Notes: generated by a model not told the origin, from the sequence alone. Counted from the first letter of the stretch, positions 2-45,282 are shown. The stretch is 64,000 nucleotides of DNA from an uncultured virus (IMG/VR IMGVR_UViG_3300028025_000094) (IMGVR_UViG_3300028025_000094); one strand, 5' to 3'. Numbers and translations: made by a program.

Positions 2-271
2 CAGGCTGGTGGACTTACATATGAATCCGTAGATGCTATCATGGATACATTAGTTGAAGCATACCAAGGATACGCAGGAAGAATAAAATTCGGTGGTCAA
101 TATACTATGATTAATTATGCTGACGTTGATGCATTTGCGTGGTTGGGTGGTATCGAAGAAATAATTAAACAGTTAAGGGAAACAATCGAATATTCTGATG
201 TTCAAAACATCCTTGATGAATTATTAGCTGCAGTTTCCAAGTTCAAATATCTATTAACGCTTAAAAAATAA
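2..271 (+). CDS. 5'-truncated ferritin/Dps-like (DUF5856-type) phage protein
   Basis: Frame open from window edge; DTLVEAYQG..GRI and QNILDELL...KYLLTLK pattern. Confidence 0.5.
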   Translation, partial: QAGGLTYESVDAIMDTLVEAYQGYAGRIKFGGQYTMINYADVDAFAWLGGIEEIIKQLRETIEYSDVQNILDELLAAVSKFKYLLTLKK

Positions 272-918
272 TGAGGCATCTTAAACCTTTTGATGAGTTG
301 TTTGAAGGTCTAGGATCATCTACCGTTCTCAACTTTTCTAGGGAGGATGTTAAAAATCGTGAATCCTATAAAGATCTGATTGCATCTGGCTTCAAGGATA
401 TAACACCTCCAAGATCTGAAGAGGGTACATTCAGATTCTCGCATCCATCATTCGATGGCATGGATTATTTAATTTACACAACGGGATACATCAGGAGACA
501 GGATACAACTAACGATGGACCCTGGCGTAATACATCAATGGTAACACAATCAGTAATACCTCCGGATGCGGTAAGAAGTGATTATAGACGTGACGAAACC
601 GGTAAGATGGATTGGGTCACGAGACGCCCATCAAATTCCAGTATTATATATGGAAGACCAATTAAAAGTCCAGAGGATTATGATATAAAATTTGAGTGGC
701 TAAAAAACATCGCAGATAAAAAAATTGCAAAATTAACCGGTACGAAATATATCCCCAATCCCAATCCCAAAGTTGTTATGGACGGATTTATTAAATTTGC
801 CCAATCCTCTCCTGCTGCAGCATTAAAGGTTAAACGAACGTTTCCCAAGATATGGGACGAAATTAAAACCCTTCCCGATATGGATACGTTAGCGGATCTT
901 GCAGATCTTGGATTTTAA
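271..918 (+). CDS. Putative internal virion protein with N-terminal leader and C-terminal LADLGF tag
   Basis: Starts MRHLKPFDELFEG, ends FPKIWDEIKTLPDMDTLADLADLGF; core resembles 17102..17671. Confidence 0.6.
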   Translation: MRHLKPFDELFEGLGSSTVLNFSREDVKNRESYKDLIASGFKDITPPRSEEGTFRFSHPSFDGMDYLIYTTGYIRRQDTTNDGPWRNTSMVTQSVIPPDAVRSDYRRDETGKMDWVTRRPSNSSIIYGRPIKSPEDYDIKFEWLKNIADKKIAKLTGTKYIPNPNPKVVMDGFIKFAQSSPAAALKVKRTFPKIWDEIKTLPDMDTLADLADLGF

Positions 919-954
919 TCCGGAACAATTTCACACCTTATCGATAAAAAGAGA

Positions 955-1332
955 ATGAAACTAGAATCATTCGAATTTTTAATTAAATCCCTCGCTAGTA
1001 ATTTTAAGACCGATCATTCATTTTATGAGTTGGGTCTTGATATTAGCAATATTACCGATCCATACCATCAGATCATAACTCATCTTCTAAGGGTCTACTA
1101 CGGGGAAACAGGTGAAGATTGGATATCCTGGTATTTGTGGGAAAGGAAAGAAGGTGATGAGGATCAAGCATGGGATGAGAATAAAAATCCAATATGCTAT
1201 GATATACCTTCTCTATGGAAGCATGTTGAAGAACTGAGGGTGTCCTCAGATTTTCAGGAGTATGTTCCACCGAGAAAAATGAATGAAGAAGAAAGGGAAG
1301 AACTATTAAATAATCTTTTCAAACACAAATAA
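955..1332 (+). CDS. Hypothetical protein
   Basis: 125-aa ORF in tightly packed + run. Confidence 0.6.
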   Translation: MKLESFEFLIKSLASNFKTDHSFYELGLDISNITDPYHQIITHLLRVYYGETGEDWISWYLWERKEGDEDQAWDENKNPICYDIPSLWKHVEELRVSSDFQEYVPPRKMNEEEREELLNNLFKHK

Positions 1333-1338
1333 TAAGAC

Positions 1339-1740
1339 ATGGGATTTCATAGTAGACATATAAGTGATGATTCTTTAATAGCATTTGCTAAAAATGAATT
1401 AGGTAGTTTTGATACCTACATGAGAAACGCAGACTCGTATAACCTAACCGGGGAATATACATCTTGCTTTTGGGATTTTTATCAGGAGGAGAAAGAAGCC
1501 AGGGAATCTCTTTGGAATATTTTAAGAAATGAATCTGAGAATAAAGACCATTTGATTAATACCGTTTGTAAATTATGGGAAACGGCAACGAATGAAAAAA
1601 ATAATTTTGACCAGCTAGAGGGGATACTTAATTATTTAGATCTTGCTGAAAAAATAGGAAACCCTGAAGAAAATATCCACATTAAAAAATTAATAGAAAT
1701 ATTAAAAGAAAGAGTTAAAAAAAATATAAACAATGAATAA
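1339..1740 (+). CDS. Hypothetical protein
   Basis: 133-aa ORF, overlaps next start. Confidence 0.6.
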   Translation: MGFHSRHISDDSLIAFAKNELGSFDTYMRNADSYNLTGEYTSCFWDFYQEEKEARESLWNILRNESENKDHLINTVCKLWETATNEKNNFDQLEGILNYLDLAEKIGNPEENIHIKKLIEILKERVKKNINNE

Positions 1741-1999
1741 CGAACAACCCCAAATACAAATTAACATAGCAGGTGCGCCTTGGATTACATGCGACTGCGG
1801 AAGTCATCTTTTTAGATCACTTATGATGATAAAAAAGATTTCTCAGTTTGAATCCCCAACCCTGAGGGAGGAACAGGTGCCAATCGATATTGTAGTCTGT
1901 GAGAGCTGTGGAAAAATACCTAATTTTTTAACCTCAAGAATTAAAGACATCCCAACTGAACTTCTAGCAAAACCCCTTGTTGTTACAGATGAAAAATAA
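1733..1999 (+). CDS. Zinc-ribbon-like protein
   Basis: CDCG and CESCG cysteine pairs. Confidence 0.6.
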   Translation: MNNEQPQIQINIAGAPWITCDCGSHLFRSLMMIKKISQFESPTLREEQVPIDIVVCESCGKIPNFLTSRIKDIPTELLAKPLVVTDEK

Positions 2000-2213
2000 T
2001 GAAACCATTCCTGAATTATCTTTTGATGAGGAAAAAATAAACTTTCTTTTAAAGAATGCAGAAAAACTACATCTTGTTATGTCTAAAGAACAGATAGATT
2101 TTCTTGTTTCCTCCCTGAAAGAAAATCTAGAAAAAATAGAGGAAACAATTAATACTCTGAAAGATCAGGAAAGCGATACTGAAGAAACTGAAGAAAAAAA
2201 CAACCATGAATAA
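1989..2213 (+). CDS. Hypothetical acidic coiled-coil protein
   Basis: ATG 1989, overlaps both neighbours. Confidence 0.5.
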   Translation: MKNNETIPELSFDEEKINFLLKNAEKLHLVMSKEQIDFLVSSLKENLEKIEETINTLKDQESDTEETEEKNNHE

Positions 2214-3477: not shown

Positions 3478-3482
3478 AATAT

Positions 3483-3752: not shown

Positions 3753-3759
3753 ATAGAAC

Positions 3760-4002: not shown

Positions 4003-4010
4003 TTAATACT

Positions 4011-4154: not shown

Positions 4155-4163
4155 TTTCAGTGA

Positions 4164-5033: not shown

Positions 5034-5054
5034 TGATAGAAAGTAAAAAAGGAA

Positions 5055-5717: not shown

Positions 5718-5719
5718 TA

Positions 5720-6109: not shown

Positions 6110-6676
6110 ATGATCCAAAGACTAGTAAAAGAAGAACAAGATAGATCGTTTGTATTATCAGAAGATATAGAAAGCGAAGTTGCGGGAGAAATTATTCATT
6201 GGATCTATACTGTTAATCAGGAAGACCAGGCAAAGGAAAACGAGGTAGTAGATTTCAAAAGAAGACCAATGGAATTGTTGATCAATACATTTGGTGGTAG
6301 TGTCTATGACACATTTGCTATAGTGAATGCGATAGTAACCTCAAAGACTCCTATTATCACAACATGTATTGGATCTGCAATGAGCGGAGGACTTTATATT
6401 CTTGCAGCAGGCCACATCAGACTAGCTTGCCAATACTCCAACTTCATGTACCACGAATGCTCAACCGGGATGGTATCAACCTACAGAAATAAGTTGGTTG
6501 AGAACCTAGAGGAGATCCACAGAGTACAAGGATTATTAGAATCCTTCCTATGCAGCAAAACAAAGCTCAATAAGAAGACTTTGCAGAAGTATAATGATAA
6601 ACGTGCCGAATGGTATTTTGGTTCAGAAGAGGCCGTTAAATGGAAGATCATAGACGGTATTTACACCCAGTCATAA
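6110..6676 (+). CDS. clpP: ClpP-like protease (copy 1)
   Basis: INTFGGSV, CIGSAMSGG (Ser), FMYHE (His), EWYFGSEEA..KIIDGI. Confidence 0.85.
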   Translation: MIQRLVKEEQDRSFVLSEDIESEVAGEIIHWIYTVNQEDQAKENEVVDFKRRPMELLINTFGGSVYDTFAIVNAIVTSKTPIITTCIGSAMSGGLYILAAGHIRLACQYSNFMYHECSTGMVSTYRNKLVENLEEIHRVQGLLESFLCSKTKLNKKTLQKYNDKRAEWYFGSEEAVKWKIIDGIYTQS

Positions 6677-12778: not shown

Positions 12779-13195
12779 ATGGAAAAGTACAACCTATTTT
12801 TAGATGACGTTAGGGATCCTTCAGCGTGTCTGAATTATAAGACTAAGTTCATGCCCGAAAATCGTAGGGCATATTCTTCGGATGATTGGGTGATTGTGAG
12901 GAGTTATTCAGAATTCGCCGAGACGATAAAATCAAAATTTGCTTCTGGAGAATTTCCTGGATTGGTTTCGTTCGATCACGATCTAGCAGATATCCATTAT
13001 GACCCAGAAACATTTCAAGAGTCATTCGAATATCACGAAGAGACTGGAGCAGATTGTGCAAATTTTATGGTTCACTTCTGTTTAGAGAATGAATTGAACC
13101 TACCAGAATTTTATGTGCACAGTGCTAATCCACTAGGAGCACAAAGGATCTATGATAACATGCAAGATTATTTCAGATACAAAGGAAGATTCTAA
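12779..13195 (+). CDS. Cyclic-phosphate-processing receiver-domain protein
   Basis: LFLDDVRDP, VRSY, SFDHDL, TG.DC, VHSANPLG. Confidence 0.8.
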   Translation: MEKYNLFLDDVRDPSACLNYKTKFMPENRRAYSSDDWVIVRSYSEFAETIKSKFASGEFPGLVSFDHDLADIHYDPETFQESFEYHEETGADCANFMVHFCLENELNLPEFYVHSANPLGAQRIYDNMQDYFRYKGRF

Positions 13196-13197
13196 AA

Positions 13198-14310
13198 ATG
13201 ACAATCGAACAATTAAGAAATAGCGGAACAATCATATTCGAGGGAATCGTCGGATCACAGGCTTATGGGATAGCAACACCCACTTCAGATATTGATAAGA
13301 AGGGCGTGTTCATCCAGGACGAAGATAGCATACTTGGATTTGGTTACATCGATCAAGTTAGCGACACCAAGAATGATCAAACATTTTATGAGATTAAAAG
13401 ATTCATAGAATTGCTAGCAAGCAATAACCCTAACATTCTTGAATTATTAAATCTTCCGGATGATTGCATCGTTTATAAAGATCCTATCTTTGATCTAGTA
13501 TTGGAACACAAGAATGACTTTATAACTAAGATGTGCCGTCATTCTTTTGGAGGATATGCAGTCGAGCAAATCAGAAAGGCGAGGGGATTGAATAAAAAGA
13601 TTACAAATCCAATGGACCCAAAGAGAAAGGGAGTTTTGGATTTTTGTTATGTTATAGATTCGGGTAAGTCCGTTCGGGTCGAGGAATATATGGAAGAGTA
13701 CAGGCTCAAGCCTGAATATTGTGGATTAGTTTCTTTGGATCATATGAAGTACATGTATTCAGTTTATTACGATAGAGTAGCGGAACTTAACGGGAAAGGA
13801 ATTAAGATGGGAGTTTGCTCTAGTTTAGAATTCAAAGGAATAGTGAGTAGTGAAGAAAACTCAAATGACGTTTGTACAAGTAGTGTACCTAAAGGTATGT
13901 TACCAGATTTCGTGTTATATTTTAACAAAGAGGGATATTCAAGTTACTGTAAAGACTATAAGGAATATTTTGAGTGGGTGGAGAAAAGAAATCCTGAAAG
14001 ATATAATGATAACATGGGTCATGGGGGAAATTATGACGGAAAGAATTTAGCACACTGTCATAGACTTCTGGATATGGCAATTGAAATAGGAGAAGGGAAA
14101 GGAATTAATATAAGAAGAAATAATAGGGAAGAATTACTAAGCATCAGAAAAGGAGAATGGGACTACGATAAATTAGTAGAGGATGCTGAGAATAAGATTA
14201 AAAAAATGGACGAGGTGTTTGAATCTTCAAATCTACCCAAATCTTTAGATAGGGATTTTCTTAATGAACTGTTGTTAAAAATTAGAAAAGAATACTATGG
14301 AAAAAAATAA
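13198..14310 (+). CDS. RlaP/Nuc-transf family nucleotidyltransferase
   Basis: GSQAYG.ATPTSDIDKKG, NNPNILELL, YDGKNLAHCHRLL. Confidence 0.88.
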   Translation: MTIEQLRNSGTIIFEGIVGSQAYGIATPTSDIDKKGVFIQDEDSILGFGYIDQVSDTKNDQTFYEIKRFIELLASNNPNILELLNLPDDCIVYKDPIFDLVLEHKNDFITKMCRHSFGGYAVEQIRKARGLNKKITNPMDPKRKGVLDFCYVIDSGKSVRVEEYMEEYRLKPEYCGLVSLDHMKYMYSVYYDRVAELNGKGIKMGVCSSLEFKGIVSSEENSNDVCTSSVPKGMLPDFVLYFNKEGYSSYCKDYKEYFEWVEKRNPERYNDNMGHGGNYDGKNLAHCHRLLDMAIEIGEGKGINIRRNNREELLSIRKGEWDYDKLVEDAENKIKKMDEVFESSNLPKSLDRDFLNELLLKIRKEYYGKK

Positions 14311-14587
14311 TGAACTTTTTTTAAAGTGTGACTGTCACACAGAAGCTATAGAAATTCAATACTGGGAAGATGAGCAAAGTTTTTATTTTTCTTTTTGGGA
14401 CTACGGAAGAAGTAAGATCTCCTGGATTCCTTGGAAAAAAAAGATTGGGATGATCTGGAGAATTCTTAAAGGAAAGGATCTATACGCAGATATGGTTATA
14501 TTGGATTATACAAAAGCAAAAGAAGTAGCGGATTTTATAAACAAAAAATTGGAAGAAGATGTACAAAGCAACAGTACTAAAAATTAA
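14297..14587 (+). CDS. Hypothetical protein
   Basis: 96 aa with CDCH, overlaps both neighbours. Confidence 0.55.
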   Translation: MEKNNELFLKCDCHTEAIEIQYWEDEQSFYFSFWDYGRSKISWIPWKKKIGMIWRILKGKDLYADMVILDYTKAKEVADFINKKLEEDVQSNSTKN

Positions 14588-15869
14588 AAACGTTAGAACC
14601 CATCCAAATGCTGATCGGGTTAAACTTGCAACATGTCACGGCAATCAAGTTGTTGTTGGACTTGAGGTAGAAGAAGGACATATGGGGGTATATTTCCCAG
14701 CTGACGGGCAATTAAGCCACGAGTTTTGTCATGCTAATAATTTATACAGAATAGCTGATCTTAATAAATTTCCAAAAGATAAAGGGGGAATGTTTGATTC
14801 TAACAGAAGGGTGAGAGCTCAAAAGTTTAGAGGCGAGATATCTGACGGATTCTGGGTACCACTTCATTATTTTGGATTTCTTCAGGTTAGTGGATTAGAC
14901 GTGGAAGGTTTTGAATTTGATGAATGGTGCGGAGTTCATATCTGCAATAAATACATTACACCTACTACGGCATCAGCACAGAAGAATAATGCTAAAAAAA
15001 CAAAGACCGCTAAAACGTCGGTGATGTTTAAAGAGCATTTTGATACTGAACACTTTGGTAAGTACCTTGATGAATTCAAAAAGGAGGAGCTAATAGTCAT
15101 CACAGAAAAACTTCACGGAACCTCAGGAAGAGTTGCTCATGTTTTAATAGATCGGAATTTAACCTGGAAAGATAAGATTGCAAAATTCCTAGGGGTTAAA
15201 GTTGCAGAGCAAGAATGGGGATATTTAAACGGGACAAGAAGAGTTGTATTAGAGGAAACGACAGGAACCCAATATCACGATCCTACAATTAGAGAAATCG
15301 CATTTAATAAATTCAAGGGAAATTTAAGAAAGGGAGAAACAGTATACTTCGAAATAGTTGGATATGAAACCAGTGGTACCCCGATTATGCCGGGTGTTGA
15401 TGTTACCAAACTTAATGATAATGAGTTACTTAAAAAGTATGGCAACCTAATGTATTATTCATATGGATGTGAACCTTTAACCTGTGAAATATATGTTTAT
15501 AGAATAACTATAACTAATGAGGATGGTCAATCTGTAGATCTTTGTTGGAATGATGTCAAAGCCAGATCTTTAGAAATTGGGGTCAATCACGTTCCTGAGA
15601 TGGGAACAACCTCTATGGATAAACTATGGGATCATAACAGAACAGGAGATGAAAAGGACGTTCAGGATCATCTTTTTAAAATGGTAGACTATTTAGCTCA
15701 GGGAAATTCCCTTCTTGATAGCAGACATCTTAAAGAAGGAGTTTGTGTAAGAATAGATCAACACGGAATTAGACCTAAGGTATACAAGCACAAAAGTTTT
15801 AACTTTAAGGTTCTTGAAGGAATAATTAAGGATTCAGGAGTTATTGATTCGGAAGAAGCACAAGGATAA
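14559..15869 (+). CDS. Rnl2-type RNA ligase with N-terminal OB-like domain
   Basis: HPNADR N-terminus, TEKLHGTS (motif I), FEIVG, EGVCVR, YKHKSFNF. Confidence 0.85.
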   Translation: MYKATVLKIKNVRTHPNADRVKLATCHGNQVVVGLEVEEGHMGVYFPADGQLSHEFCHANNLYRIADLNKFPKDKGGMFDSNRRVRAQKFRGEISDGFWVPLHYFGFLQVSGLDVEGFEFDEWCGVHICNKYITPTTASAQKNNAKKTKTAKTSVMFKEHFDTEHFGKYLDEFKKEELIVITEKLHGTSGRVAHVLIDRNLTWKDKIAKFLGVKVAEQEWGYLNGTRRVVLEETTGTQYHDPTIREIAFNKFKGNLRKGETVYFEIVGYETSGTPIMPGVDVTKLNDNELLKKYGNLMYYSYGCEPLTCEIYVYRITITNEDGQSVDLCWNDVKARSLEIGVNHVPEMGTTSMDKLWDHNRTGDEKDVQDHLFKMVDYLAQGNSLLDSRHLKEGVCVRIDQHGIRPKVYKHKSFNFKVLEGIIKDSGVIDSEEAQG

Positions 15870-17034: not shown

Positions 17035-17101
17035 AATACCCTAAAGAACTTGATATGGTTTGTTTTGTTCAAAATGATATATAAAGAAACAAAATTAAAA
17101 G

Positions 17102-17671
17102 ATGGCCCAGAATTTCAAATTTAATAATCTTCACGATTTAGATGAGGTAAGAAAACCAAAGAAGTGTCCAATATTTGACTTTGGACCATTGAGGGAATCA
17201 GAGCTTTATCGTGATTTGATATCATTAGGATATATGGAGGTTAACGCACAGGGAGAGCCCAGATTAGAAAACGAAACATTCCAGGGAGAAAGACAAGGAA
17301 ATTTAAGATTTATGCATCCAAGATTCAGACTTTCGATTCGAATGAACCTTAATGGAGCTATTTGGGAAGATGCACCATCAGGAAGAGCATATAGAATTAA
17401 TATTGAATATGATCATGATCCTAAATGGTATAAGGAATGCCTAGGATTAAAAGATTATGAGAATAGACTTCAATATCTTATTAAAAAGCTCTTATATTCT
17501 GATGGATTTATCACATCCAAGGAATTAACAACAGTAGAAAGTGGAACTGAGATTATTCTAAGAAAAATTGACGAAAACATAGAGAACATCAAAAAGCTAA
17601 GAACCGTTCCACCTAGTCTAGAAAAAAATGTAGAATATCTAAAGGTAGCATCGGAATATGGTCTATTTTAA
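17102..17671 (+). CDS. Paralogue of 271..918 with variant C-terminal tag
   Basis: LYRDLISLGY..LRFMHPRF..DYENRLQYL; ends VASEYGLF; GATATATA 17076-17083. Confidence 0.55.
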   Translation: MAQNFKFNNLHDLDEVRKPKKCPIFDFGPLRESELYRDLISLGYMEVNAQGEPRLENETFQGERQGNLRFMHPRFRLSIRMNLNGAIWEDAPSGRAYRINIEYDHDPKWYKECLGLKDYENRLQYLIKKLLYSDGFITSKELTTVESGTEIILRKIDENIENIKKLRTVPPSLEKNVEYLKVASEYGLF

Positions 17672-19616: not shown

Positions 19617-20579
19617 ATGAAAGTATTGGGATTCAAAAAATGGTATGAAGGGAAGACTGAAAAACATGCTCATAGTGTTTCTTCGGGAGCTGGATTTTCT
19701 AGAATAGGAGAAAATATATTTAGACTCCCCCAGAAATTGCTGCAGATAGAAATAGACGTTTTAACAGAAAGTGTTGATGTCAAAAAATCTAAGAATAGAA
19801 TAGATCGATATTTTTTGTCGAGTAATCCAGATCTATATGGAGAGGATCAGATTAAATCTATTAAAAAAATTCTAGCGGAGGGTAAACAAAGGGGAAATCA
19901 ATTCTTTTTGGTTGGATACGACCTAACTTCCGCAGATCCCAAAAAGTGCTATAAAAATTCACTCAAGTCAGTAGAGGTATTTAAGAAATCTTTTGATTTC
20001 ATGGAAGCCATCCCTACCAGGGGAATGGGAAAAATGGAACCAGTCCATGAAAATTATTTATCGAAGATTCCAACAAGAATGATTAAACAGAGAATAGAAC
20101 TAATTGAATGTCACTTTAATCTAGATGACATTGAATCTGAAATTAATATTCCATTCTATTTTAACCCGAATGATTATTCTCTCCTAGAAAAATATCAGAT
20201 ATGTCTGAAAGGAATATTATTTCAAGCAATACTTAAAAATGAAAGGTTTGGACTCGATGTGAATGCTTCTAAGCCGTGGACATCATCAAAGAGGAATGAG
20301 CTAAATGAAAGTAATAAGAAAAAGGAGGATCAAGGTATTTTAATGGAAATGAAATATCCAACACCTGAAAAATCGTCTCTGCTTTACCCTCAGAATAAAC
20401 CAATTCAAACCAGTAACAAAATAACGGTTAAGGAATTAACGGAAAGAAGGGCTTTATCTATTGTTGAATATTTAAATAAGATTTCTTTTGGAATGCCGAT
20501 TGAATATTTTCCTAAAGGAATTGGGTACAAAGAAGGTAATCCTTCTTTAAATTTGGTATTTAAAAATTTAGAATCCTAG
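19617..20579 (+). CDS. Protein with degenerate OmpA-C-like domain(s)
   Basis: LTERRALSIVEYL...KGIG resembles LSxxRAxxVxxYL..GxG; earlier RGMGKMEP. Confidence 0.4.
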   Translation: MKVLGFKKWYEGKTEKHAHSVSSGAGFSRIGENIFRLPQKLLQIEIDVLTESVDVKKSKNRIDRYFLSSNPDLYGEDQIKSIKKILAEGKQRGNQFFLVGYDLTSADPKKCYKNSLKSVEVFKKSFDFMEAIPTRGMGKMEPVHENYLSKIPTRMIKQRIELIECHFNLDDIESEINIPFYFNPNDYSLLEKYQICLKGILFQAILKNERFGLDVNASKPWTSSKRNELNESNKKKEDQGILMEMKYPTPEKSSLLYPQNKPIQTSNKITVKELTERRALSIVEYLNKISFGMPIEYFPKGIGYKEGNPSLNLVFKNLES

Positions 20580-21449
20580 CTCTCCTAGATCTGCTGATGT
20601 TTTATATCCGCTATCTTCCCCGTGTATTTTTGTAATTTCCTCCCAGACAAGAGGTAGATTATTTCTAATAGAATTTAACACCCCTGGGCTTGGGTTGAGT
20701 TTAACAATTGCATCAGCTAAATCAGTATCACTTATCATTCCTTTAAAGAATTGTGCATAATTTATATCCTCTGATAAAATATTGATGAAATATTCTTTAC
20801 TCTGAATTGCTTCCTCTACAGCTTCAACTGCATATTTAGGAGTAACTGTCATATATTCTCCCATTATAAATTTGTGCATATTACGGAAAAGCTTATAATC
20901 GGGTTTGTTTGGTTTACCATAGTTATTTCCTGATAAATCTATACTTCCTGATATTAGGAAAGGACCATCGCTAATATCGGTGATCATATTGTTTTTTAGA
21001 TTAAAATCTCCGAAAACAAATCTTGGAGCACCTTTTAATGATCCAATCAAGGAGTTGCTGACATCAAAATTTTCAACCATATAAGGTGATCCCTTTAAGG
21101 ATTTTAAATTAGTACTGCTTGCATCAAAACTTTTACAACTTTTTGGAGCACCAAGCAGATTTAGTATTTCTGAGCCACTACAATCAAAATTCCCCCCGAC
21201 CTTCCCAAACGTAAATCCTAGATCTTTTATGGATTTGATTTCAATATCATTATTTATTGTTACATTATAAGCAAAATCAATATCATTAGAATCATTGTTC
21301 AATTTCCAAGAATTATAAAAGGGAACGTCGGTTAGTATAATTTTTTTCTCCGCTATAGCTCGAGAAACCGCTTCTTCTTGATCCGTTTTAAGCAGATTCT
21401 CGTTCAAGCTGTATTTTTTAGTGTTTAGAAATGAGTTGTAAGTAAACAT
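20568..21449 (-). CDS. SLKGAP-repeat protein with C-terminal ADLGELGF tag
   Basis: Likely start MFTYNSFLN at 21449; repeats VGGNFDCS/LKSLKGSP/SLKGAP; ends LPLVWEEI...TSADLGELGF. Confidence 0.65.
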   Translation of the reverse strand: MFTYNSFLNTKKYSLNENLLKTDQEEAVSRAIAEKKIILTDVPFYNSWKLNNDSNDIDFAYNVTINNDIEIKSIKDLGFTFGKVGGNFDCSGSEILNLLGAPKSCKSFDASSTNLKSLKGSPYMVENFDVSNSLIGSLKGAPRFVFGDFNLKNNMITDISDGPFLISGSIDLSGNNYGKPNKPDYKLFRNMHKFIMGEYMTVTPKYAVEAVEEAIQSKEYFINILSEDINYAQFFKGMISDTDLADAIVKLNPSPGVLNSIRNNLPLVWEEITKIHGEDSGYKTSADLGELGF

Positions 21450-22120: not shown

Positions 22121-22768
22121 TTACTTATTCAAAGACCTTTCTATTTTTTCACCATCGGGTTTGCTGTAAACAATCTTTGAAGGATTAACAGTGTAACTTA
22201 CATCTTTTAATTTATCAGTATATTTTTCGCCCGTCCCCTTTTTTAGATATGCAATAGTAGAGTGTGGATGGTAATCTGGGTAGTCAGTAGTGTGTGGCAA
22301 CTTTGTTAACTCGCCGTTTATTTTATGTAAATGATCTCCGTCAACATCAAATTTTAAAACATCATATTTGTCGTTATTGAAGCAAGAAGCATTATGCAAT
22401 TTAAGCTCTTTAGGCACCCCGAATTTTGTTGATGTATCTAAAACCCTATCATCATCTATTTCGTCTGAATGTAGACCGTATAGTAATGTCGTGTGCGGTT
22501 CTTTTTCTAATCCGTATGAAGAATCTCCATCTTCTGTATAGATATCATCTTCCTCTATCAATGAGTGCATTTCACTCATTTTTGGAAAGTCGAAATAAAT
22601 CATCGAGCATCCATAATCATATGCTTCCTTGATACCCTCATCTACAGGAACACAATTAGGAACAGTTTTACCTTTCTTCTTTTTAGTTCCTATTTGTTTG
22701 TATCCTTTCCAACAAGGATTACTTTCTGTGATGTTCTGAAATTCGTCAAATTTTTTAATCAGTTTCAT
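22121..22768 (-). CDS. 2H phosphoesterase (T4 gp57B/Acb1-like) with leader and CWKGY module
   Basis: PHTTLLYG and PHSTIAY HxT motifs; N-terminus MKLIKKFDEF..ES then PCWKGYKQIG...VPNCVP. Confidence 0.75.
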   Translation of the reverse strand: MKLIKKFDEFQNITESNPCWKGYKQIGTKKKKGKTVPNCVPVDEGIKEAYDYGCSMIYFDFPKMSEMHSLIEEDDIYTEDGDSSYGLEKEPHTTLLYGLHSDEIDDDRVLDTSTKFGVPKELKLHNASCFNNDKYDVLKFDVDGDHLHKINGELTKLPHTTDYPDYHPHSTIAYLKKGTGEKYTDKLKDVSYTVNPSKIVYSKPDGEKIERSLNK

Positions 22769-25257: not shown

Positions 25258-25698
25258 TTATTCTATTATCCTTCCTGCTCCCCTGTAACTTTTTTCATAC
25301 TTAGGTTCATTGATACTTGAGATCTTTACAACATCACCCCTCTGTGGTGAATGCAAAAATAATCCTTCTCCTAAATAACATCCACAATGCCAACCGCTGG
25401 GACTTCTCGTACTTCTAAAAAATATAAGATCTCCTACCTTTAAACTGTCCTTGGATATTCTAGATGTAGAGTTCCATTGTTTATAACAAACACTCGGTAT
25501 GTTTAAATTATAAACCTGCTTGTATAAATTTTTATTTAGGTTAGAGCAATCTATTCCTCTTTTAGTGCTTCCCCCTAGAAGATAGGGTGTTCCGCTCCAC
25601 TCCTTTATAAATGCTGATAAATTAGAATCTATCTTTAAATCCTGTCCTCTTACAATACCTGCCTGGAGTATTAATAAGAATAATATAATTCTTTTCAT
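25258..25698 (-). CDS. Secreted NlpC/P60 (C40) peptidase
   Basis: Signal peptide MKRIILFLL; GTPYLLGG, GIDCS, GDLIFF, WHCG, FLHS. Confidence 0.9.
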   Translation of the reverse strand: MKRIILFLLILQAGIVRGQDLKIDSNLSAFIKEWSGTPYLLGGSTKRGIDCSNLNKNLYKQVYNLNIPSVCYKQWNSTSRISKDSLKVGDLIFFRSTRSPSGWHCGCYLGEGLFLHSPQRGDVVKISSINEPKYEKSYRGAGRIIE

Positions 25699-25767
25699 TC
25701 CTCTATCTATCCTCACAAAAAAGTCCAGAATAATCTAGACTTTTAATATTTTACGAATTTCCTAAGA

Positions 25768-26250
25768 TTATTTTTGATTTTGGGAAGGATCGTCTAATTT
25801 TTGAATATACGCATCAATCAATCGACTAACAGCTTCTGGTTTATCGTCCGATTTGAATTTTACTTTTATTTTAGCCATGCCTGAAGAATCTGTATTTTTC
25901 CCGGAGTCAATTTCTATACTTTTAAGGTTGTGCACATAATTATTTTTCTTAAATAATCCTAGAATTGATTTTTTTAAATTAGAAACCTCTGCTTCACTGT
26001 CTCCAAATATTAATCTGGCTTCAAATTCTATATCAAGCTCTTCTAAACCTATAGATGAATGATCTGCTAAAATATACAAGGGGATGTCTAAATCTCTATC
26101 CCCTATTTTAAATCTCTTCATTTTAGGTACACCAGCGGAATCAAAATAATTTCTTAGTGAATTAATATGTTGCCTTTCGCTTATCCCCTTTGCGACCATT
26201 CCCGCTTCTAGTAGACCTCCTACCAGTTCTTCTATATTAAGTCTCGACAT
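25768..26250 (-). CDS. DUF2589-like protein (short type)
   Basis: DIPLYILADHSSIGLEELDIEF, IKVKF...PEAVSRLID; parallels adjacent gene. Confidence 0.65.
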   Translation of the reverse strand: MSRLNIEELVGGLLEAGMVAKGISERQHINSLRNYFDSAGVPKMKRFKIGDRDLDIPLYILADHSSIGLEELDIEFEARLIFGDSEAEVSNLKKSILGLFKKNNYVHNLKSIEIDSGKNTDSSGMAKIKVKFKSDDKPEAVSRLIDAYIQKLDDPSQNQK

Positions 26251-26309
26251 ATAAATTATTTTTTAACAAGTGAGTAAAAATATAAAAAATCTATTAAAAA
26301 TAGATGATA

Positions 26310-26333
26310 AAACGGGGGATATATCCCCCGTTT
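26310..26333. terminator. Perfect 24-bp palindrome, probable terminator
   Basis: AAACGGGGGATATATCCCCCGTTT between the two DUF2589 genes. Confidence 0.65.
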
Positions 26334-26399
26334 AAAGTTTAACCAAGTTTAGTTGACCTACTGATTATAGAATAAAATCAGATATGGTTTCTGATACTA

Positions 26400-27014
26400 T
26401 TACTTGTTTTGATCTACCGCTTGTGGAACTACAGAAGGCTCCATCATCATGTTTAACATGTCAGAAAGCTTTAGCATTCCTTCAGTAGCTGGTAATTGCT
26501 CTGCATGAACCTTTACGTTGTACTTGGCAGAGTTGTCGGTGCTTCTTGTGTTCTCCTTGTGAGTCGAAACTGATCCGCTCATAGAAACGCTGTATTTCAT
26601 ACCCCAGAAACCACCGCTAGCACTAGCATTAAGTGTCGCAGAACTATCAGAGCTATCTTTAGATTGCTCTGATTGTTTAACTTCCATTGTGAATTCAATG
26701 TCAGCAGAAGTAATAGCCAAAGAAGGCAAAGGAACTAAAGGTAGCATTGGCACCATAGAATCAATCTGCTGTAATTCCTGTTTTCCAGAGTCTGGATTCG
26801 TTACATATCTGTTCAATTGAACGTCTAAGAATCTGGTTTTAACCTTCTTGTTATTAGGATCACTCGGATCTGCTGGTTCGAAAGCAACTTCTGAAATGTA
26901 CTTCCAGGTAACGTCGTTCAGCTTTGCCTGACCCTTTGCCATCCCAACAAGGGGGGAAACAATCAGATCCTCAATCGGAAGACCTGCGAATTGTTGTGCA
27001 ATGTCGTTTGCCAT
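26400..27014 (-). CDS. DUF2589-family protein
   Basis: QFAGLPIEDLIVSPL, VPMLPLVPLPSLAI, TRSTDNSAKYNVKVHA, EGMLKLSDML. Confidence 0.75.
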   Translation of the reverse strand: MANDIAQQFAGLPIEDLIVSPLVGMAKGQAKLNDVTWKYISEVAFEPADPSDPNNKKVKTRFLDVQLNRYVTNPDSGKQELQQIDSMVPMLPLVPLPSLAITSADIEFTMEVKQSEQSKDSSDSSATLNASASGGFWGMKYSVSMSGSVSTHKENTRSTDNSAKYNVKVHAEQLPATEGMLKLSDMLNMMMEPSVVPQAVDQNK

Positions 27015-27540: not shown

Positions 27541-28404
27541 ATGAAACACGTACAACTTTTTGAGGGATGGTTAGATTCACTTACCTCTGGATTCTCTGGA
27601 AAGAGTAAGGCAGAACCAGAAGATTATTCCTACAGGGGAACCAAATTTAGGGATGCTAAAGATATGTGGGATCATCCCGAAAGATACAACAAGGATGTCT
27701 ACAAAAATTATGATTCGGCATTAAAAGAATTAGAAACAGATCTTGGGACTAGAGAAATATTAAGTGTCTCGTTCATGGCAGATGAGGTTTTTAGGGAGAT
27801 TCACGATTTAACAAGTCCTACAACATCTTTTGGTACTTCATCGCTTGCTGGTAATGAACCAAAACCCAAGGATCCATGTGATAATGAAATACAAATTCTT
27901 AAAATAGATCCTAATAAGGAATTTTTTTCAAATAGGTATTGGTATGAATACCACAATTTCCATTCTTATTATTTTATGAATGAAAGAATTGGATTTGTAA
28001 CTAAGGGAAGGTTTGAATATCCTGTACATTCTTTTTTCACTAAAGATTTTTATCACAGATGGTTAGAAGATACTGACAAGTTATCAGAGCTTCGTGAGGA
28101 AATAAAAAATGCTCGTAAATATAGATTTTGGAAAACAGATCCTAAGATAATTGCTAGTAGATATACAAAATGTGGGATTGATACGCTATTTAGCGTTGCT
28201 GATGAGATGGAAAGATCGCAAGGCGAAGATTTTTTAATTGCTTGTGATCTTCAGGAAAGAATTAAAAAAGATCCTAACATAACTTTCTCCCTGTTTTTCA
28301 GACTAAGAAAATCTGGATATGATAAATTACTAAAATCGTTACAGGGTGAAATCAGCGATGATACAATGAGTACAATATCAGACTTAGGAGAATTAGGATT
28401 CTAA
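27541..28404 (+). CDS. Leader-bearing protein with C-terminal SDLGELGF tag
   Basis: Starts MKHVQLFEGW, ends TMSTISDLGELGF. Confidence 0.65.
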   Translation: MKHVQLFEGWLDSLTSGFSGKSKAEPEDYSYRGTKFRDAKDMWDHPERYNKDVYKNYDSALKELETDLGTREILSVSFMADEVFREIHDLTSPTTSFGTSSLAGNEPKPKDPCDNEIQILKIDPNKEFFSNRYWYEYHNFHSYYFMNERIGFVTKGRFEYPVHSFFTKDFYHRWLEDTDKLSELREEIKNARKYRFWKTDPKIIASRYTKCGIDTLFSVADEMERSQGEDFLIACDLQERIKKDPNITFSLFFRLRKSGYDKLLKSLQGEISDDTMSTISDLGELGF

Positions 28405-37227: not shown

Positions 37228-37791
37228 ATGGGATTACAATTATCTTTACCTAAAGAAAGAAGTTTACACCTTGCTCAACAGGTTGATCAGGCATCAATCA
37301 ACGCAATAACTAAATCCATTATAGAAATTAATGAGAGCGATCTGCACGTTTCAAAAATATCGGAAGTCCATGGTTTTACTTATAATCCTAAACCAATAGA
37401 ATTGTACATAGATTCCTACGGGGGGTATGTTTATCAGTGTCTTGGGTTGCTCGGTGTAATAGAAAATTCTAAAATACCAGTCCATACTATCGTAACAGGA
37501 TGCGCAATGAGTTGTGGATTTATGATAGCGATTACGGGACACAAAAGATATGCGTATAACCATGCTACTTTTATGTATCACCAGGTCAGTTCAGGAACAG
37601 GCGGAAAATTAAAAGACATGGAGGAAGATATCATCGAAACCAAAAGACTTCAAAAATTTATTGAAGAACATACACTATCCAAAACTAAGCTTACTGAAAA
37701 GGATCTTGAAAAATGCTACGACCAAAAGAAAGATTGGTATTTTACATCTAAGCAGGCATTGAAGAGTGGAATTATAGATGCTATTATCTAG
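37228..37791 (+). CDS. clpP: ClpP-like protease (copy 2)
   Basis: IDSYGGYV, GCAMSCG, FMYHQ, KDWYFTSKQA..GIIDAII; full Ser-His-Asp triad. Confidence 0.88.
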   Translation: MGLQLSLPKERSLHLAQQVDQASINAITKSIIEINESDLHVSKISEVHGFTYNPKPIELYIDSYGGYVYQCLGLLGVIENSKIPVHTIVTGCAMSCGFMIAITGHKRYAYNHATFMYHQVSSGTGGKLKDMEEDIIETKRLQKFIEEHTLSKTKLTEKDLEKCYDQKKDWYFTSKQALKSGIIDAII

Positions 37792-40162: not shown

Positions 40163-40876
40163 CTAGATAAGATTTTTTTCGAACTGATCATAGGCCCATT
40201 TTAAATAATCATAACCAGCTTCGACATTCTTAGAAACCTTTAAAGGTGGTTTAGATCCTTTGTATTTTTTAGGATCTATCTTTTTCAATTGCTTCCATGC
40301 AGAATCGCCTATCTGAAATAGACCCTTAAAACTTGGATTCGATTTAGGATTCGGATCGAATCTAGACTCTTTATAAGCAACTGTTGTTAAGAAATGATCT
40401 GGAAAATCGGAAGGCTTGATCCTAAATAAAGCAGCCTTTATTTTAGCGTTCTTTGGATTGTTAATTTCTTTTAAAGCTTCCCCCTCTAATTTTTTCCAGG
40501 TGTCTCTTTGATACATTAGAAATGCCATAACAGCTTCTCTATCCTTTCCGTCTCTTACAATATCATATCCTGTATAAGAGCTGGGCATATTATTAAGCAT
40601 ATTTCTTCTTAATGTTGGATCTAATTTTTCTTTTCCCTTGATAATATTAACTAATTTAGCTGCTCCCGTCGGTCCTTGCTGATGCGGGAGATATAACATA
40701 TGTGGTCCGTTGATTATCTCTATTGTCTTGGAGGTCGTTGATTTTTTATCAACTGCCTTAGGTTTGCTGGTGAAAAATCCCAGAACAGTTTTCTTGAATT
40801 TGTCCCAGACTCCTTCCTGCTCATCTATTCTTTCGGAATAATCATTAAACTCCTTATACTCTTTCAGATATCTCAT
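40163..40876 (-). CDS. SLT-type lytic transglycosylase with N-terminal leader
   Basis: VAYKESRFDP, KGLFQI, NVEAGYDYL; starts MRYLKEYKEF. Confidence 0.7.
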   Translation of the reverse strand: MRYLKEYKEFNDYSERIDEQEGVWDKFKKTVLGFFTSKPKAVDKKSTTSKTIEIINGPHMLYLPHQQGPTGAAKLVNIIKGKEKLDPTLRRNMLNNMPSSYTGYDIVRDGKDREAVMAFLMYQRDTWKKLEGEALKEINNPKNAKIKAALFRIKPSDFPDHFLTTVAYKESRFDPNPKSNPSFKGLFQIGDSAWKQLKKIDPKKYKGSKPPLKVSKNVEAGYDYLKWAYDQFEKNLI

Positions 40877-40888
40877 TACGCTATATAT

Positions 40889-41416: not shown

Positions 41417-41418
41417 AA

Positions 41419-42174
41419 TTAAAATCCAAATTCTCCTAGATCTGATAAGGTAATTACTTCGTCACCGAATTTACTGATCATTAAATCAAATAGTTCTGGA
41501 ACTTGTTTCCTAATAATAGACATTGTTTGAGGTGTACATTCGTGATTAAAATCGGTTTTTGCTAATTCTGATATAAAATCTTTTTGAATATATTTACTGC
41601 ATCCAACTATTGAAAGAGCCACATCTTCAAAGTTTATTGAAGCACAGCTAACCATTGATCCAATTAGATCAAAATCATATTCATCCTCGTAATCATATCC
41701 TCCATCATCTTTATTCAGATTCTTTAAATGATATAAAGAGACTATTTCCTTCTTATCATTTTTTAATTCCGTGATTACATCCTCTATTGTCTCCTTATCA
41801 TCAACGCTTCTCTCCCAATTTTTGATTTCCACATTAGGAGGAAGAAAAAATGTCACAATAAATATATTGCCATATACTATTGAATGTTCAGTATCCCATT
41901 CCCCTGTATTTTGTTCCGCGTCTTTGCAATCTTCCCACTCAGCAGTACCTTTCTCATAATGGTCACAATCATCATCAAAATGATCAGTCCAACATTGTCC
42001 AGGTACAGAATCTGACATGTCTGGCATCGATGTGCTAATTGGGATTAATTCAAAGTCCATGTAACAATAATTCTCATTAGTACCTAAAGGGACTAGAAAA
42101 AATGTCCGATATGCCATTTCGGTGTTCCCAGATTCTAAAATAGAAAAATTTTTAAAATTCTTGATGATTTTCAT
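41419..42174 (-). CDS. Leader-bearing acidic protein with C-terminal SDLGEFGF tag
   Basis: MKIIKNFKNFSILES ... IRKQVPELFDLM..ITLSDLGEFGF. Confidence 0.65.
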   Translation of the reverse strand: MKIIKNFKNFSILESGNTEMAYRTFFLVPLGTNENYCYMDFELIPISTSMPDMSDSVPGQCWTDHFDDDCDHYEKGTAEWEDCKDAEQNTGEWDTEHSIVYGNIFIVTFFLPPNVEIKNWERSVDDKETIEDVITELKNDKKEIVSLYHLKNLNKDDGGYDYEDEYDFDLIGSMVSCASINFEDVALSIVGCSKYIQKDFISELAKTDFNHECTPQTMSIIRKQVPELFDLMISKFGDEVITLSDLGEFGF

Positions 42175-42198
42175 TCTTTACTTATTATAGACAGCTAA

Positions 42199-42435: not shown

Positions 42436-42437
42436 GA

Positions 42438-43286
42438 TTAGAAGCCAAGTTCAGTAAGATCTGCAAGGGTTTCTGCTCCACCACCTGTTGATTTTTGTAG
42501 CTCTTCCCAAAGACCTGGGTAATATTTTTTAACGAAGTTCATTACTCGATAATCCCCGCTATTTAATATTATATCCTGAATTTCTTTTCTTCTTTCTTCA
42601 CCTGGTCCTAAATCCTGGCGTCCGCAAGCGCTAGCGATCATACCAGATACAATCTCGGTGAAGAGGCTGTATTCCTGTATTGATTCTGGATTTCTTGAAT
42701 GCTCCTTTGCGAAATATTCTTTATTTGATTCGATTGAAACATTGATTAGTGCCTCTGCTACCATGCCTTCGATAATATCGGGATACTTTGAAGAAATGTC
42801 TTTGGCAAATACTACACCGGATCTAAATCCTCCCTTTATATCCTTTTGTATATCCCTTCTAGGATCGGTCGACCTTAATCTGATTGATAGCATTTCTTTG
42901 TTCTTTCCAGATACTATAACACTTGCAGAAGCTAATAATAGTTTTGCCGGGCTTGTTTTATCCCACGTTCTTAGGGGCTTAACTATAAACCTTTTGAAAT
43001 ACTCAAAATCCTCGTTTCCCTGGAATGGAACAGATGGTGTACCTAGATCTGAATTGGTTAATTTGACAGCTGTTAGTTTATTGTCTTCTGGCAGAATTAT
43101 ATTAACTCCACTTTCTAAAGCAACCTTCTGGGTAGCACCTACCTCTTGGCCTGTTATTTCCTCCCTTCTTATTCCCATAGCTTCGCATAATGCTGCCCAT
43201 TTTGGAGAGGTGAAAAGACCACTTATATCTACATTATCTTCCGATAATTCACTCTCAAATAATCTAAATAGCTTAATGTGCTTCAT
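42438..43286 (-). CDS. Leader-bearing protein with C-terminal ADLTELGF tag
   Basis: MKHIKLFRLFES ... VKKYYPGLWEEL..ETLADLTELGF. Confidence 0.65.
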   Translation of the reverse strand: MKHIKLFRLFESELSEDNVDISGLFTSPKWAALCEAMGIRREEITGQEVGATQKVALESGVNIILPEDNKLTAVKLTNSDLGTPSVPFQGNEDFEYFKRFIVKPLRTWDKTSPAKLLLASASVIVSGKNKEMLSIRLRSTDPRRDIQKDIKGGFRSGVVFAKDISSKYPDIIEGMVAEALINVSIESNKEYFAKEHSRNPESIQEYSLFTEIVSGMIASACGRQDLGPGEERRKEIQDIILNSGDYRVMNFVKKYYPGLWEELQKSTGGGAETLADLTELGF

Positions 43287-43439
43287 TTTTAATCTTGTAT
43301 TTAGTATATATATTCAAAAGACAATCTCCACTTTTTATTATTCCCGGAGTCCCCTTTACATAAGGGCTTTACTCCTCCTTGAATGATATAAAATAAAGGT
43401 TAGATGTTTGAATATATAAAGGAATATAAATTACCAAAA

Positions 43440-43634
43440 ATGAAACAAGTAATTGAAAAAATTAAGGGTATCATAGATCTGGTTAAAAAGCTACTAGTAA
43501 AAGGAACTTCTGAAGAGAAGAAAGAACAAATAAAAGAACTTACTGAGGAAGTTTTTGAGGTTGTTGAAGAGGTCAAAGAAGTTAAAAAAGCTATTAAACC
43601 AAAATCTAAGGCTCAGCCTAAGGTTAAAAAATAA
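43440..43634 (+). CDS. Small Lys/Glu-rich protein
   Basis: ATG 43440 after AATATATAAA box. Confidence 0.45.
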   Translation: MKQVIEKIKGIIDLVKKLLVKGTSEEKKEQIKELTEEVFEVVEEVKEVKKAIKPKSKAQPKVKK

Positions 43635-43688
43635 TTTAAGACAGTTGGGGTTTGAAGACCCCACTTAGGGCCGGAAAGTTATTTCCGT

Positions 43689-43720
43689 AAGGCAGGAATT
43701 CGCTACTCCTGCCTTTTTTT
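43689..43720 (+). terminator. Intrinsic terminator preceded by two further hairpins
   Basis: AAGGCAGGA-ATTCGCTAC-TCCTGCCTTTTTTT. Confidence 0.75.
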
Positions 43721-43735
43721 GATGATATATAAAAC

Positions 43736-44071
43736 ATGGGAGATAATAAAATTTTTGAAGGCTACGACGATAAACTCGATAAGGATATAAGGGATTTCTT
43801 CGGTCTTTATTTTACGAGAAAGATAAAAATAGATAACTGTGACGACGTGCTAATTTTTAGCGGGCCTTTGGAAAATGATGCAGAGGCAAATCAAATCATA
43901 GACGATCTTAAAGATGCTTTGGATGAGATCGGTGATAATATGCGAAGCGACGGCGAAATATTAAATGAATTCGGGATCGACGACTTTCTTTATGAAAATC
44001 CAACTTACTTGGAAAAATTAAATTCGTTGGGGTACTCCGTAGACTATGAGGAGATAAAAAAAGGATATTAG
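43736..44071 (+). CDS. Acidic hypothetical protein
   Basis: MGDNKIFEG; GATATATA 43724-43731. Confidence 0.55.
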   Translation: MGDNKIFEGYDDKLDKDIRDFFGLYFTRKIKIDNCDDVLIFSGPLENDAEANQIIDDLKDALDEIGDNMRSDGEILNEFGIDDFLYENPTYLEKLNSLGYSVDYEEIKKGY

Positions 44072-44079
44072 AAAGTGCT

Positions 44080-45282
44080 TTAGAATCCAAGCTCACCTAA
44101 ATCCGCCAGAGTCTCTAACCCACTTGGGTCATTACCACTAAGATTTTTGTAAATATTCCATAGTTCAGGAAGATTCTTTCTTATATTACTTAATCCCTCA
44201 GCAGGAATAGATAAACCTTTCATTTCTTTTGCTATTAATTTGAAAAATACGGTATCGCTGATTTCAATTTCATCCTCTCCCTCCATTCCCTTAGCGAAAA
44301 TATCCATAGCAAATCTTACAAATGCTTTTAGAATTTCGTACATATGTATTTGCTTTTTGTCTGGAAGTTCATTGTCTATGTATTTAGTATCTACTGATGA
44401 TTTTAGTTCTATAAATGCTTTAGCTGCTGTTGTTTCAACCTCCTTGCATTTTTCTATTGTATCACCTACATGAATATCAACACCTGACATGAAATAACTC
44501 ATCTTCAATTTTTTGGGTACTTCCGAAAACGAAATGGCAATAGGTACGTTTCTAAAATGAAGATCATATAAGGAAGCTCCTTCAATGCCCCTATTTCCTG
44601 AGGATTGGAGTACTATATCTGCTAATTTTATCAGGGGTGAATCTGTTTTATTGCCCGTATAATTCCAAAAACCATTTGCGAAACTTTGACACACTATTTC
44701 TATACGAGAATCTCTAACCGATTTTTCCCTTCTTACTAAACCTATAAAATTTAAAATTTGATTCCATCTCGGGGAAGAAAAAATAGGAGAATGCTCATCC
44801 ATTGGTTCTTTTCCCCCAAAATATGCTTTAGAAAAATGCTTTCTGGTTTCAGGAATGTTTAGATTTTTACCTATTAGATTATTAATCTCCTGATCTACAA
44901 ATTTCTTGTACTCCTTTATAGGCATACCCTGGGGTCTTATGGAAGTACTGTTTGCAATAAATTCAACCCACACCCCTCTAATACAGTCTGTGAGCGAATC
45001 ATAAATTCCCTCGCCATACGTTCTTCCTGTAGACTCTACCGCATGGTACCATTTCCCGTTTTCTAGCTGAGTGATATAGGTTTTACCCCTAAGATTATTT
45101 ATTTCTACCTTACCGGTTTTTCTTGCTTTATACAGTATTTCGCCTGCATCCAGGCGGGAAGGTTTTGCCAGAGCTAATAGATCTTTACCCTCGGTCGTAT
45201 TCTCCAATGCATTTACTATCTCGTCAGTTACTGATTGTCTAGTAGCTGCTTCAAATAATTGGAATGTCTTTACATATTTCAT
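44080..45282 (-). CDS. Leader-bearing protein with C-terminal ADLGELGF tag
   Basis: MKYVKTFQLFEA ... IRKNLPELWNIY..ETLADLGELGF. Confidence 0.65.
   Translation of the reverse strand: MKYVKTFQLFEAATRQSVTDEIVNALENTTEGKDLLALAKPSRLDAGEILYKARKTGKVEINNLRGKTYITQLENGKWYHAVESTGRTYGEGIYDSLTDCIRGVWVEFIANSTSIRPQGMPIKEYKKFVDQEINNLIGKNLNIPETRKHFSKAYFGGKEPMDEHSPIFSSPRWNQILNFIGLVRREKSVRDSRIEIVCQSFANGFWNYTGNKTDSPLIKLADIVLQSSGNRGIEGASLYDLHFRNVPIAISFSEVPKKLKMSYFMSGVDIHVGDTIEKCKEVETTAAKAFIELKSSVDTKYIDNELPDKKQIHMYEILKAFVRFAMDIFAKGMEGEDEIEISDTVFFKLIAKEMKGLSIPAEGLSNIRKNLPELWNIYKNLSGNDPSGLETLADLGELGF

Follow-up and report, generated by a model that had tools for sequence, protein, structure and literature searches.

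A few unrelated proteins enter the head of bacteriophage T4 by means of a short N-terminal address; they are injected and disarm the host. The cleavage consensus of gp21-type proteases is [LI]-x-E. According to PMC3012670, these unrelated internal proteins have only the capsid-targeting sequence (CTS) in common, and PMC5694885 describes the CTS as 10-20 residues that load proteins into the prohead and are removed by gp21. From the internal protein Alt, the latter reports, gp21 takes off 6 N-terminal and 63 C-terminal residues (sites ITE-6 and LTE-619), and its authors ask whether the role of the Alt pieces is to target, to tether or to control (PMC5694885). We confirmed these cleavage coordinates on the T4 record. 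Here we describe a C-terminal module that is shared by six proteins of an uncultured virus (IMGVR_UViG_3300028025_000094), in a stretch of 64,000 nucleotides (nt) that we call the window and whose numbering is used for all coordinates. Proteins ending in this module are called tagged below.

Encapsulin cargo-loading peptides and the C-terminal targeting tail of the HK97 prohead protease are known signals by which unrelated cargo is brought, via its C terminus, into a shell of the HK97 fold; they are short peptides that follow flexible linkers. A further architecture is that of SOCS-box and F-box proteins and of poxvirus Ank-PRANC proteins, in which variable binders, including leucine-rich repeats (LRR), are joined to a small constant helical end domain that plugs into a common machine. 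The module of the window resembles each of these systems in part. We tentatively propose, at a probability of roughly 0.4, that some of the cargo proteins loaded into the head have it in common as a domain for docking or tethering, with a common putative partner.

Six proteins share one end on unrelated cores

The six open reading frames (ORFs) named in an initial annotation of the window were found at their coordinates (proteins A to F, Table 1). All of them end in T[LIS][AS]DL[GAT][ED][LF]GF, with a TAA codon immediately after. In a scan of all 917 stop-to-stop ORFs of at least 30 amino acids (aa) in the window, the end DLx[ED][LF]GF was present in exactly 6, against 2e-4 predicted from residue frequencies, so the proposal of one shared end is borne out. 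The same is true of the proposal that codons differ between copies: 46 of the 114 same-residue codon pairs in the last 10 codons were identical (0.40), and window codon usage predicts 0.42. Because the identical-codon fraction matches this expectation, the C-terminal conservation reflects selection at the protein level and is no DNA repeat.

BLASTP among the six proteins detected similarity only in the last 30-50 residues, reaching ~110-120 residues for the pairs B/F and B/E. BLAST sorted the cores of 48 family proteins of at least 140 residues, defined as the sequence minus 15 N-terminal and 45 C-terminal residues, into 13 clusters, and no two of the six window proteins shared a cluster. Core-only alignments were also compared profile against profile with hhalign, using two within-cluster splits as positive controls. 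All 43 between-cluster pairs gave a probability of at most 10.9%, while the controls gave 99.5% and 95.4%. Since both the core BLAST and the profile tests were negative, the six proteins are not full-length homologues. Core architectures differ too, an LRR solenoid in one case and a mixed alpha/beta core in protein F. The domain is fused to at least 13 mutually unrelated cores, LRR binders among them, in agreement with the original description of a portable module on otherwise dissimilar proteins. The homologues of proteins B (19) and F (23) are, every one, unnamed or "hypothetical".

The shared end is predicted to be a small folded domain

When 43 proteins were aligned over their last 110 residues, a conserved unit of ~55 residues emerged, so that the shared end first described stands and its assumed length of ~30 aa does not. 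The unit is made up of an amphipathic stretch, sP..h..IRK..P.LW..I.K.hG, a short variable linker and T.ADLGELGF. An AlphaFold2 model of the last 60 residues of protein F, based on a 56-sequence alignment, had a mean predicted local distance difference test score (pLDDT) of 89.7 and a predicted template modelling score (pTM) of 0.72, with helices at 3-15, 21-30, 32-41 and 46-57, followed by L-G-F. In a model of full-length protein F built from 32 sequences (pLDDT 84.9, pTM 0.77), the module helices were placed at 343-355, 361-370, 372-381 and 386-397, again followed by L-G-F. TLADLGE lies within the fourth helix at a pLDDT of ~90, and just L-G-F extends past the helix end.

Because AlphaFold2 puts TLADLGE in helix 4 of a compact fold, what had been taken for a short free peptide tag is predicted to be the end of a small folded domain, namely the last helix and the L-G-F hook of a four-helix unit of ~55 residues. 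In the full-length model of protein F, the disordered, tag-like element is predicted to be the N-terminal leader, residues 1-12 of which (pLDDT<50) form the sole long low-confidence segment. Across the 56 sequences, G59 and F60 are invariant and D54, L55 and G56 nearly so, and the upstream helices vary conservatively. The last helix is conserved and contains GxxG. An [ILV]-G-[FL] tripeptide is present at the end of the domain, all six window proteins terminating in L-G-F or F-G-F.

Searches for a described relative were negative. No family in Pfam or PHROGs matched the module in scans of the six proteins, nor did any in NCBIfam in scans of two of them. The tail profile had a best E of 1.2 against PDB sequences, and Foldseek searches of the module against PDB and BFVD a best E of 1.5. 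A wide structural alignment with VIA gave as its best match the FliG middle domain (Z 5.2, root-mean-square deviation [rmsd] 3.3, 57 aligned residues), which is under the guide of the tool for helical models, and a search of the ESM Atlas with the module returned no usable match. Full-length protein F had no clear fold neighbour either (Foldseek best E 0.74; VIA best Z 6.0 for Rv3902c, rmsd 2.9, 82 aligned, under the tool's guide for a meaningful match). The initial statement that the module belongs to no named family is consistent with these results, and judged by its sequence the module appears to be a new, well-delimited and unnamed domain family of uncultured T4-type jumbo phages. Likenesses of the end to motifs that bind the beta clamp, to the acidic tips of SSB, to ribosomal stalk tails and to nuclear export signals were weighed and dropped, the window offering no clamp or other such partner for a test.

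Three proteins show altered forms of the domain or its end. In P0028, a member of the core cluster of protein A, the first half-module (sP..A.....FPK.W.EI) is duplicated in tandem before a normal end, which implies that the module can be rebuilt piecewise. The protein at 17102, once listed as a variant (..VASEYGLF), is not detected by the module hidden Markov model (HMM; E>10). In its core it is a relative of protein A, and P0044, which falls in the same core cluster and also matches at the N terminus, has a proper tail; for this reason the module of the 17102 protein looks decayed. For the second presumed variant, at 59863, only part of the claim survived: the protein has only a marginal internal half-module match (12.2 bits, E 0.024). 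In record G007, a 311-aa leader protein beside the tagged gene (L127 551-1486, minus strand) has the short hydrophobic C-terminal end ..KFGLFD, which is reminiscent of ..YGLF and ..LDLF in these window proteins.

The domain is strictly C-terminal and confined to uncultured jumbo phages

A profile built from 15 tails was searched against 1.84 billion representative proteins at a cut-off of E<=1e-3. Among the 59 matches, 52 end in G-F, and in 52/52 the alignment reaches the last residue, with zero residues after the final Phe. The remaining 7 are internal partial matches in long repeat proteins (TPR arrays etc.) and are regarded as spurious. A local module HMM was run on 3,178 ORFs from the window and nine related loci; each of its 20 significant matches was flush with the ORF end, the window copies scoring 38.8-66.1 bits. 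Copies in 15 metagenome loci are likewise all C-terminal and flush. The strict C-terminal position predicted by the initial annotation is thus confirmed, both in the true database matches and in the significant local ones.

The exact tail was detected in the same 15 metagenome loci and in three IMG/VR contigs, where it occurs in clusters of 3-4 genes; a scan of IMG/VR by tail pattern and profile revealed no contigs beyond those three. One contig of 111 kb with four tagged genes is estimated to represent ~33% of its genome, implying a phage genome of ~330 kb. In annotated phage records, no DNA or protein match was found to the tagged region, to protein F or to a neighbour of 500 aa. All carriers of the domain are uncultured jumbo phages from aquatic settings, and its genes often form tandem clusters.

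This clustering bears on two other explanations. In the first, the domain would be the conserved structural end of a fast-evolving multigene family, with a role in folding or solubility; it would be kept by descent or by recombination between tandem paralogues, and its flush end would be the place where the last helix stops. The tandem clusters, the ~110-120 residues of similarity in B/F and B/E and the compact fold predicted by AlphaFold2 fit this explanation, and the duplicated half-module of P0028 and the decayed module of the 17102 protein are the ordinary domain turnover that it leads one to expect. It sits less well with core homology that profiles fail to detect (43 pairs at <=10.9%, controls at 95-99%), and with cores as different as an LRR solenoid and the mixed alpha/beta fold of protein F. 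Moreover, conservation peaks in the last ten residues, two terminal positions are invariant and length does not vary after the Phe (52/52), which is unusual for a cap. We consider this main rival unlikely.

In the second explanation, the domain mediates self- or hetero-association: four-helix units of different members would pack against each other and thereby gather several cargo proteins in one complex. Such packing would suit a helical domain of small size whose last helix is conserved and contains GxxG, and since the genes of several members are neighbours, their joint expression is conceivable. However, records G007 and G010 carry a single tagged gene each, flush and leader-bearing as elsewhere, and hetero-bundling is therefore not the general role. 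Association would also leave the need for a free C terminus unexplained, and we judge it rather improbable.

The N-terminal leader and its T4-type background

Full-length tagged proteins also begin with a short N-terminal leader, predicted to be disordered, of the form MKH[IL]K.F.LFE[SA]. The corresponding regular expression matched 38 of the 58 tailed sequences, and most of the others are N-terminally truncated fragments, in line with the co-occurrence of module and leader noted at the outset. That all six window proteins carry the leader was too broad a statement: it is canonical in five, and protein B starts with a degenerate form. An [LI]-x-E site within the first 18 residues was found in 36/38 leaders, as compared to 15/64 control ORFs. 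The leader Glu is at position 11 in 21 of the 38, and Ser or Ala comes next in 30. The leader is commoner than the module: in the window and related loci, 37 ORFs are of the leader type (a few in doubtful frames), and 15 of these have the module.

For the genomic background, we compared 22 ClpP2-bearing IMG/VR records with a length of 100 kb or more; completeness is 90% or higher in 8 of them. A capsid gene of the T4 Gp23 type was present in 13/22 records and in 6/8 of the near-complete ones, and a T4 gp21-type prohead protease gene in 14/22 and 6/8, respectively. Record G007 contains the capsid gene, the prohead protease gene and one tagged gene. Neither T4-type gene was detected in fragments G001-G003, and there is no capsid gene within the 64-kb window. 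The ClpP2 family, to which ClpP-like protein 2 of the window belongs, comprises 1,241 database proteins on contigs of up to 384 kb and is a widespread gene of T4-type jumbo phages.

Because of the T4 CTS precedent, the [LI]-x-E statistics of the leader and the T4-type genes in relatives, it is reasonable to view the leader as a CTS-like signal. The uncultured jumbo relatives seem to have expanded T4-style cargo loading to dozens of genes. If the leader is a capsid address, two window enzymes that have it and lack the module, an SLT transglycosylase and an Acb1 or 2H-like enzyme, would be delivered with the DNA.

A head protease would offer still another role for the module. By analogy to T4 Alt, it could be a C-terminal propeptide that helps to load or restrain cargo in the prohead and is then cut off. 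The 63 residues shed by Alt at LTE-619 (PMC5694885) are about the size of the module, and an [LI]xE site that would release 45-75 residues is present in 21/47 tagged proteins, over a background of 0.24. This boundary site is not conserved, however, and is lacking in A and F. The only recurrent site is L-G-E before L-G-F in 26/47 proteins, most others having Asp there, and the module HMM scored -0.9 bits on the C-terminal 63 residues of Alt. A cleavable propeptide was rejected on account of the missing conserved [LI]-x-E boundary site, and we give this explanation very little credence.

A candidate docking or tether role on head cargo

The role that we favour can be outlined as follows. The leader would serve as a propeptide for capsid targeting, bringing these proteins into the prohead, and would be cut after Glu by a gp21-type protease, both by analogy to T4. 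The C-terminal domain would mark a subset of this leader-bearing cargo. Through helix 4 and the terminal hook with its free carboxylate, the most conserved face, the domain would attach to a single partner common to all, in the head or, after ejection, in the host, and the variable cores would supply different activities or targets.

Several points weigh against such a docking domain. No partner for the module was identified, and no cultured relative was found in annotated phage records. If the leader by itself loads cargo, as the CTS does in T4, packaging would require no second signal. Some of the flushness might arise simply because the fold stops with its last helix, the terminal Phe may be exposed or buried, and the domain could mediate self-association instead. 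Finally, the T4-type capsid and protease genes come only from relatives with 55-69% ClpP2 identity, and from neither the window phage nor the multi-copy fragments G001-G003.

The docking role might take a specific form in which a single machine, for example a host or phage ClpP-type ring, a head protein or a portal protein, receives the LGF-COOH hook in a hydrophobic pocket, and the variable binders (LRR and others), delivered ready-made by the head, bring different host targets to it. We think this form improbable. If true, the tagged proteins would be a phage counterpart of the F-box, SOCS-box and PRANC adaptor families.

A second, C-terminal constant domain with a free invariant end on a subset of the cargo would mean that sorting or tethering of the cargo follows more than one route. 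The domain of ~55 residues would also be a handle for finding the common partner. Should the partner be a host hub or protease, the tagged proteins would constitute a new class of injected adaptors, and a portable domain could become a tool beside the T4 CTS for placing foreign proteins.

Engagement of Clp proteases

Clp ATPases plug an [I/L]GF tripeptide loop into hydrophobic pockets of ClpP, and L-G-F is the docking motif described for ClpC1 and ClpX (PMC11005422). Protease engagement was among the roles initially suggested for the module. In such a role its L-G-F would mimic the loop, and the tagged proteins would be adaptors, inhibitors or substrates that dock on the ClpP of the phage or of the host. 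The window indeed has genes for two ClpP-like proteins and for a ClpC-type ATPase with an FGF that aligns with ClpC1's LGF loop; protein D ends in F-G-F, as in the loop of this ATPase.

Against this stands the nature of the match, which comprises three residues, was found after weighing many known C-terminal motifs and is weak. In addition, the residues before the hook are predicted to be helical and part of a folded domain, not of a flexible loop. Co-occurrence does not support protease engagement either. The module is present in 2/22 ClpP2-bearing records and in 0/8 of those at least 90% complete; that is, the ClpP2 family is found without the module in 20/22 long and 8/8 near-complete records. 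Conversely, no ClpP was found in the 111-kb contig with four tagged genes, although this contig is only ~33% of its genome. ClpP2 and the module occur together in the window, G007 and G010. The 60-residue module (56-row alignment) was co-folded with ClpP-like protein 2 in four copies (44-row alignment), in runs without controls; the scores, 0.00 and 0.19 as compared to a mark of 0.32, speak neither for nor against binding. Docking of the tagged proteins on ClpP is, in our estimate, very improbable.

The ATPase and the two ClpP-like genes look like a complete phage Clp set. The C-terminal extension of the ATPase, ~120 residues in length, contains two leader-like stretches, KYKLFEN and MKFESFF. 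No close relative of the ATPase was found in IMG/VR, and its relatives in annotated phage records are only generic ClpC-like genes of ~45% identity. Both ClpP-like proteins are divergent, and their alignments to solved ClpP begin ~16-20 residues short of the canonical N terminus.

Neighbouring genes and promoters

The coordinates of the tagged genes and of other features are compiled in Table 1. A DUF5856 gene adjoins a tagged gene in all three places that hold both (the window, L037 and G010), where the tagged cores are unrelated and the gene order takes two forms. As a general partner DUF5856 was rejected, being present in only 6/25 records, five of which are without the module.

An ATATATA[AG] box, often GATATATAA, was observed 11-53 nt upstream of many transcription-unit starts (e.g., 17066-17077, 52720-52735 and 56350-56370). 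It resembles TATAAATA of the T4 late promoter. The box is located upstream of 21/100 window genes, and a few others have a CTATAAT-type box in its place. Because tagged and untagged genes have the ATATATA[AG] box alike, it is no classifier of tagged genes, and it was rejected as their mark.

At 12779-15869 (plus strand), the window contains an RNA-repair-type cluster consisting of a cREC_REC receiver, an RlaP nucleotidyltransferase and an RNA ligase with a PHA02142 OB domain. G001 carries HAD_SAK_2 and a TROVE-domain protein. Two adjacent DUF2589 genes at 25768-27014 (minus strand) lie beside an NlpC/P60 peptidase gene (25258-25716).

Table 1. Tagged proteins of the window and other features (window numbering unless a locus is named; Clp genes are given for context, and their membership in a system is not implied)
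Feature	Coordinates	Strand	Properties
Tagged protein A	271..918	+	215 aa; leader MRHLKPF..; module ~751-915; end ..TLADLADLGF; HMM 44.1 bits, flush; core in BLAST cluster with P0028, P0036 and P0057
Tagged protein B	20568..21449	-	293 aa; degenerate leader; BspA-like LRR core; module ~20571-20735; end ..TSADLGELGF; 57.1 bits
Tagged protein C	27541..28404	+	287 aa; leader MKHVQLFE..; singleton core; module ~28237-28401, the most divergent; end ..TISDLGELGF; 38.8 bits
Tagged protein D	41419..42174	-	251 aa; leader MKIIKNF..; module ~41422-41586; end ..TLSDLGEFGF; 55.9 bits
Tagged protein E	42438..43286	-	282 aa; leader MKHIKLF..; module ~42441-42605; end ..TLADLTELGF; 66.1 bits; syntenic copy in metagenome locus L035
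Tagged protein F	44080..45282	-	400 aa; leader MKYVKTF.., disordered in model; end ..TLADLGELGF; 51.1 bits
Relative of A with degenerate or lost module	17102..17671	+	core related to A; end ..ASEYGLF; no HMM match
Small leader protein	59863..60210	-	115 aa; end ..SKLDLF; marginal internal half-module at HMM positions 15-40
Acb1 / 2H-phosphoesterase-like protein	22121..22768	-	leader, no module
SLT lytic transglycosylase domain protein	40163..40876	-	leader, no module
Leader-only protein	63212..63772	+	186 aa; ends homologous to a G001 protein
ClpP-like protein 1	6110..6676	+	context
ClpP-like protein 2	37228..37791	+	candidate partner; context
ClpC-type AAA+ ATPase without N-domain	52747..55026	+	FGF aligns with the ClpC1 LGF ClpP-docking loop; context
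DUF5856 gene	2..271	+	5' end cut by the window; abuts tagged gene A
DUF5856 gene copy	L037 1504-1935
DUF5856 gene copy	L128 1631-2077

Comparison with known systems

The Clp loops share with the module an identical tripeptide, and the same window contains two ClpP-like genes as well as a Clp ATPase gene whose product has an FGF loop in alignment. In the Clp ATPases the motif sits in a flexible internal loop, whereas here the tripeptide is a free C terminus after the helix of a predicted folded domain, which moreover is absent from most genomes with the ClpP2 family. The C-terminal propeptide of Alt is likewise a piece of ~60 residues on a leader-bearing, head-packaged and ejected protein. It is found on one protein, however, while the module is common to many, and it has no sequence similarity to the module, which is without a conserved cleavage site at its boundary.

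The likeness to SOCS-box, F-box and PRANC proteins is one of architecture only, the module being without a sequence or fold match. Encapsulin-type signals differ in that a short peptide (10-20 aa) follows a disordered linker, and the module has ~55 residues and is predicted to be folded.

The T4 CTS system, with the internal proteins IPI-III and Alt, also has features in common with the tagged proteins. In both cases, unrelated and fast-evolving proteins share only short conserved ends, among them an N-terminal leader of 10-20 residues with [LI]-x-E before a small residue, and T4-type capsid and gp21-type protease genes are present, here in the wider clade. In contrast to the N-terminal, disordered CTS, the module is a C-terminal domain of ~55 residues, predicted to be folded and found only on a subset of leader proteins. 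No comparable shared C-terminal domain is described for T4 in the available portions of PMC3012670 and PMC5694885. In its proposed role, and by analogy to these systems, the domain would be a new variation on modular signals, a theme already known from the head cargo of phages.

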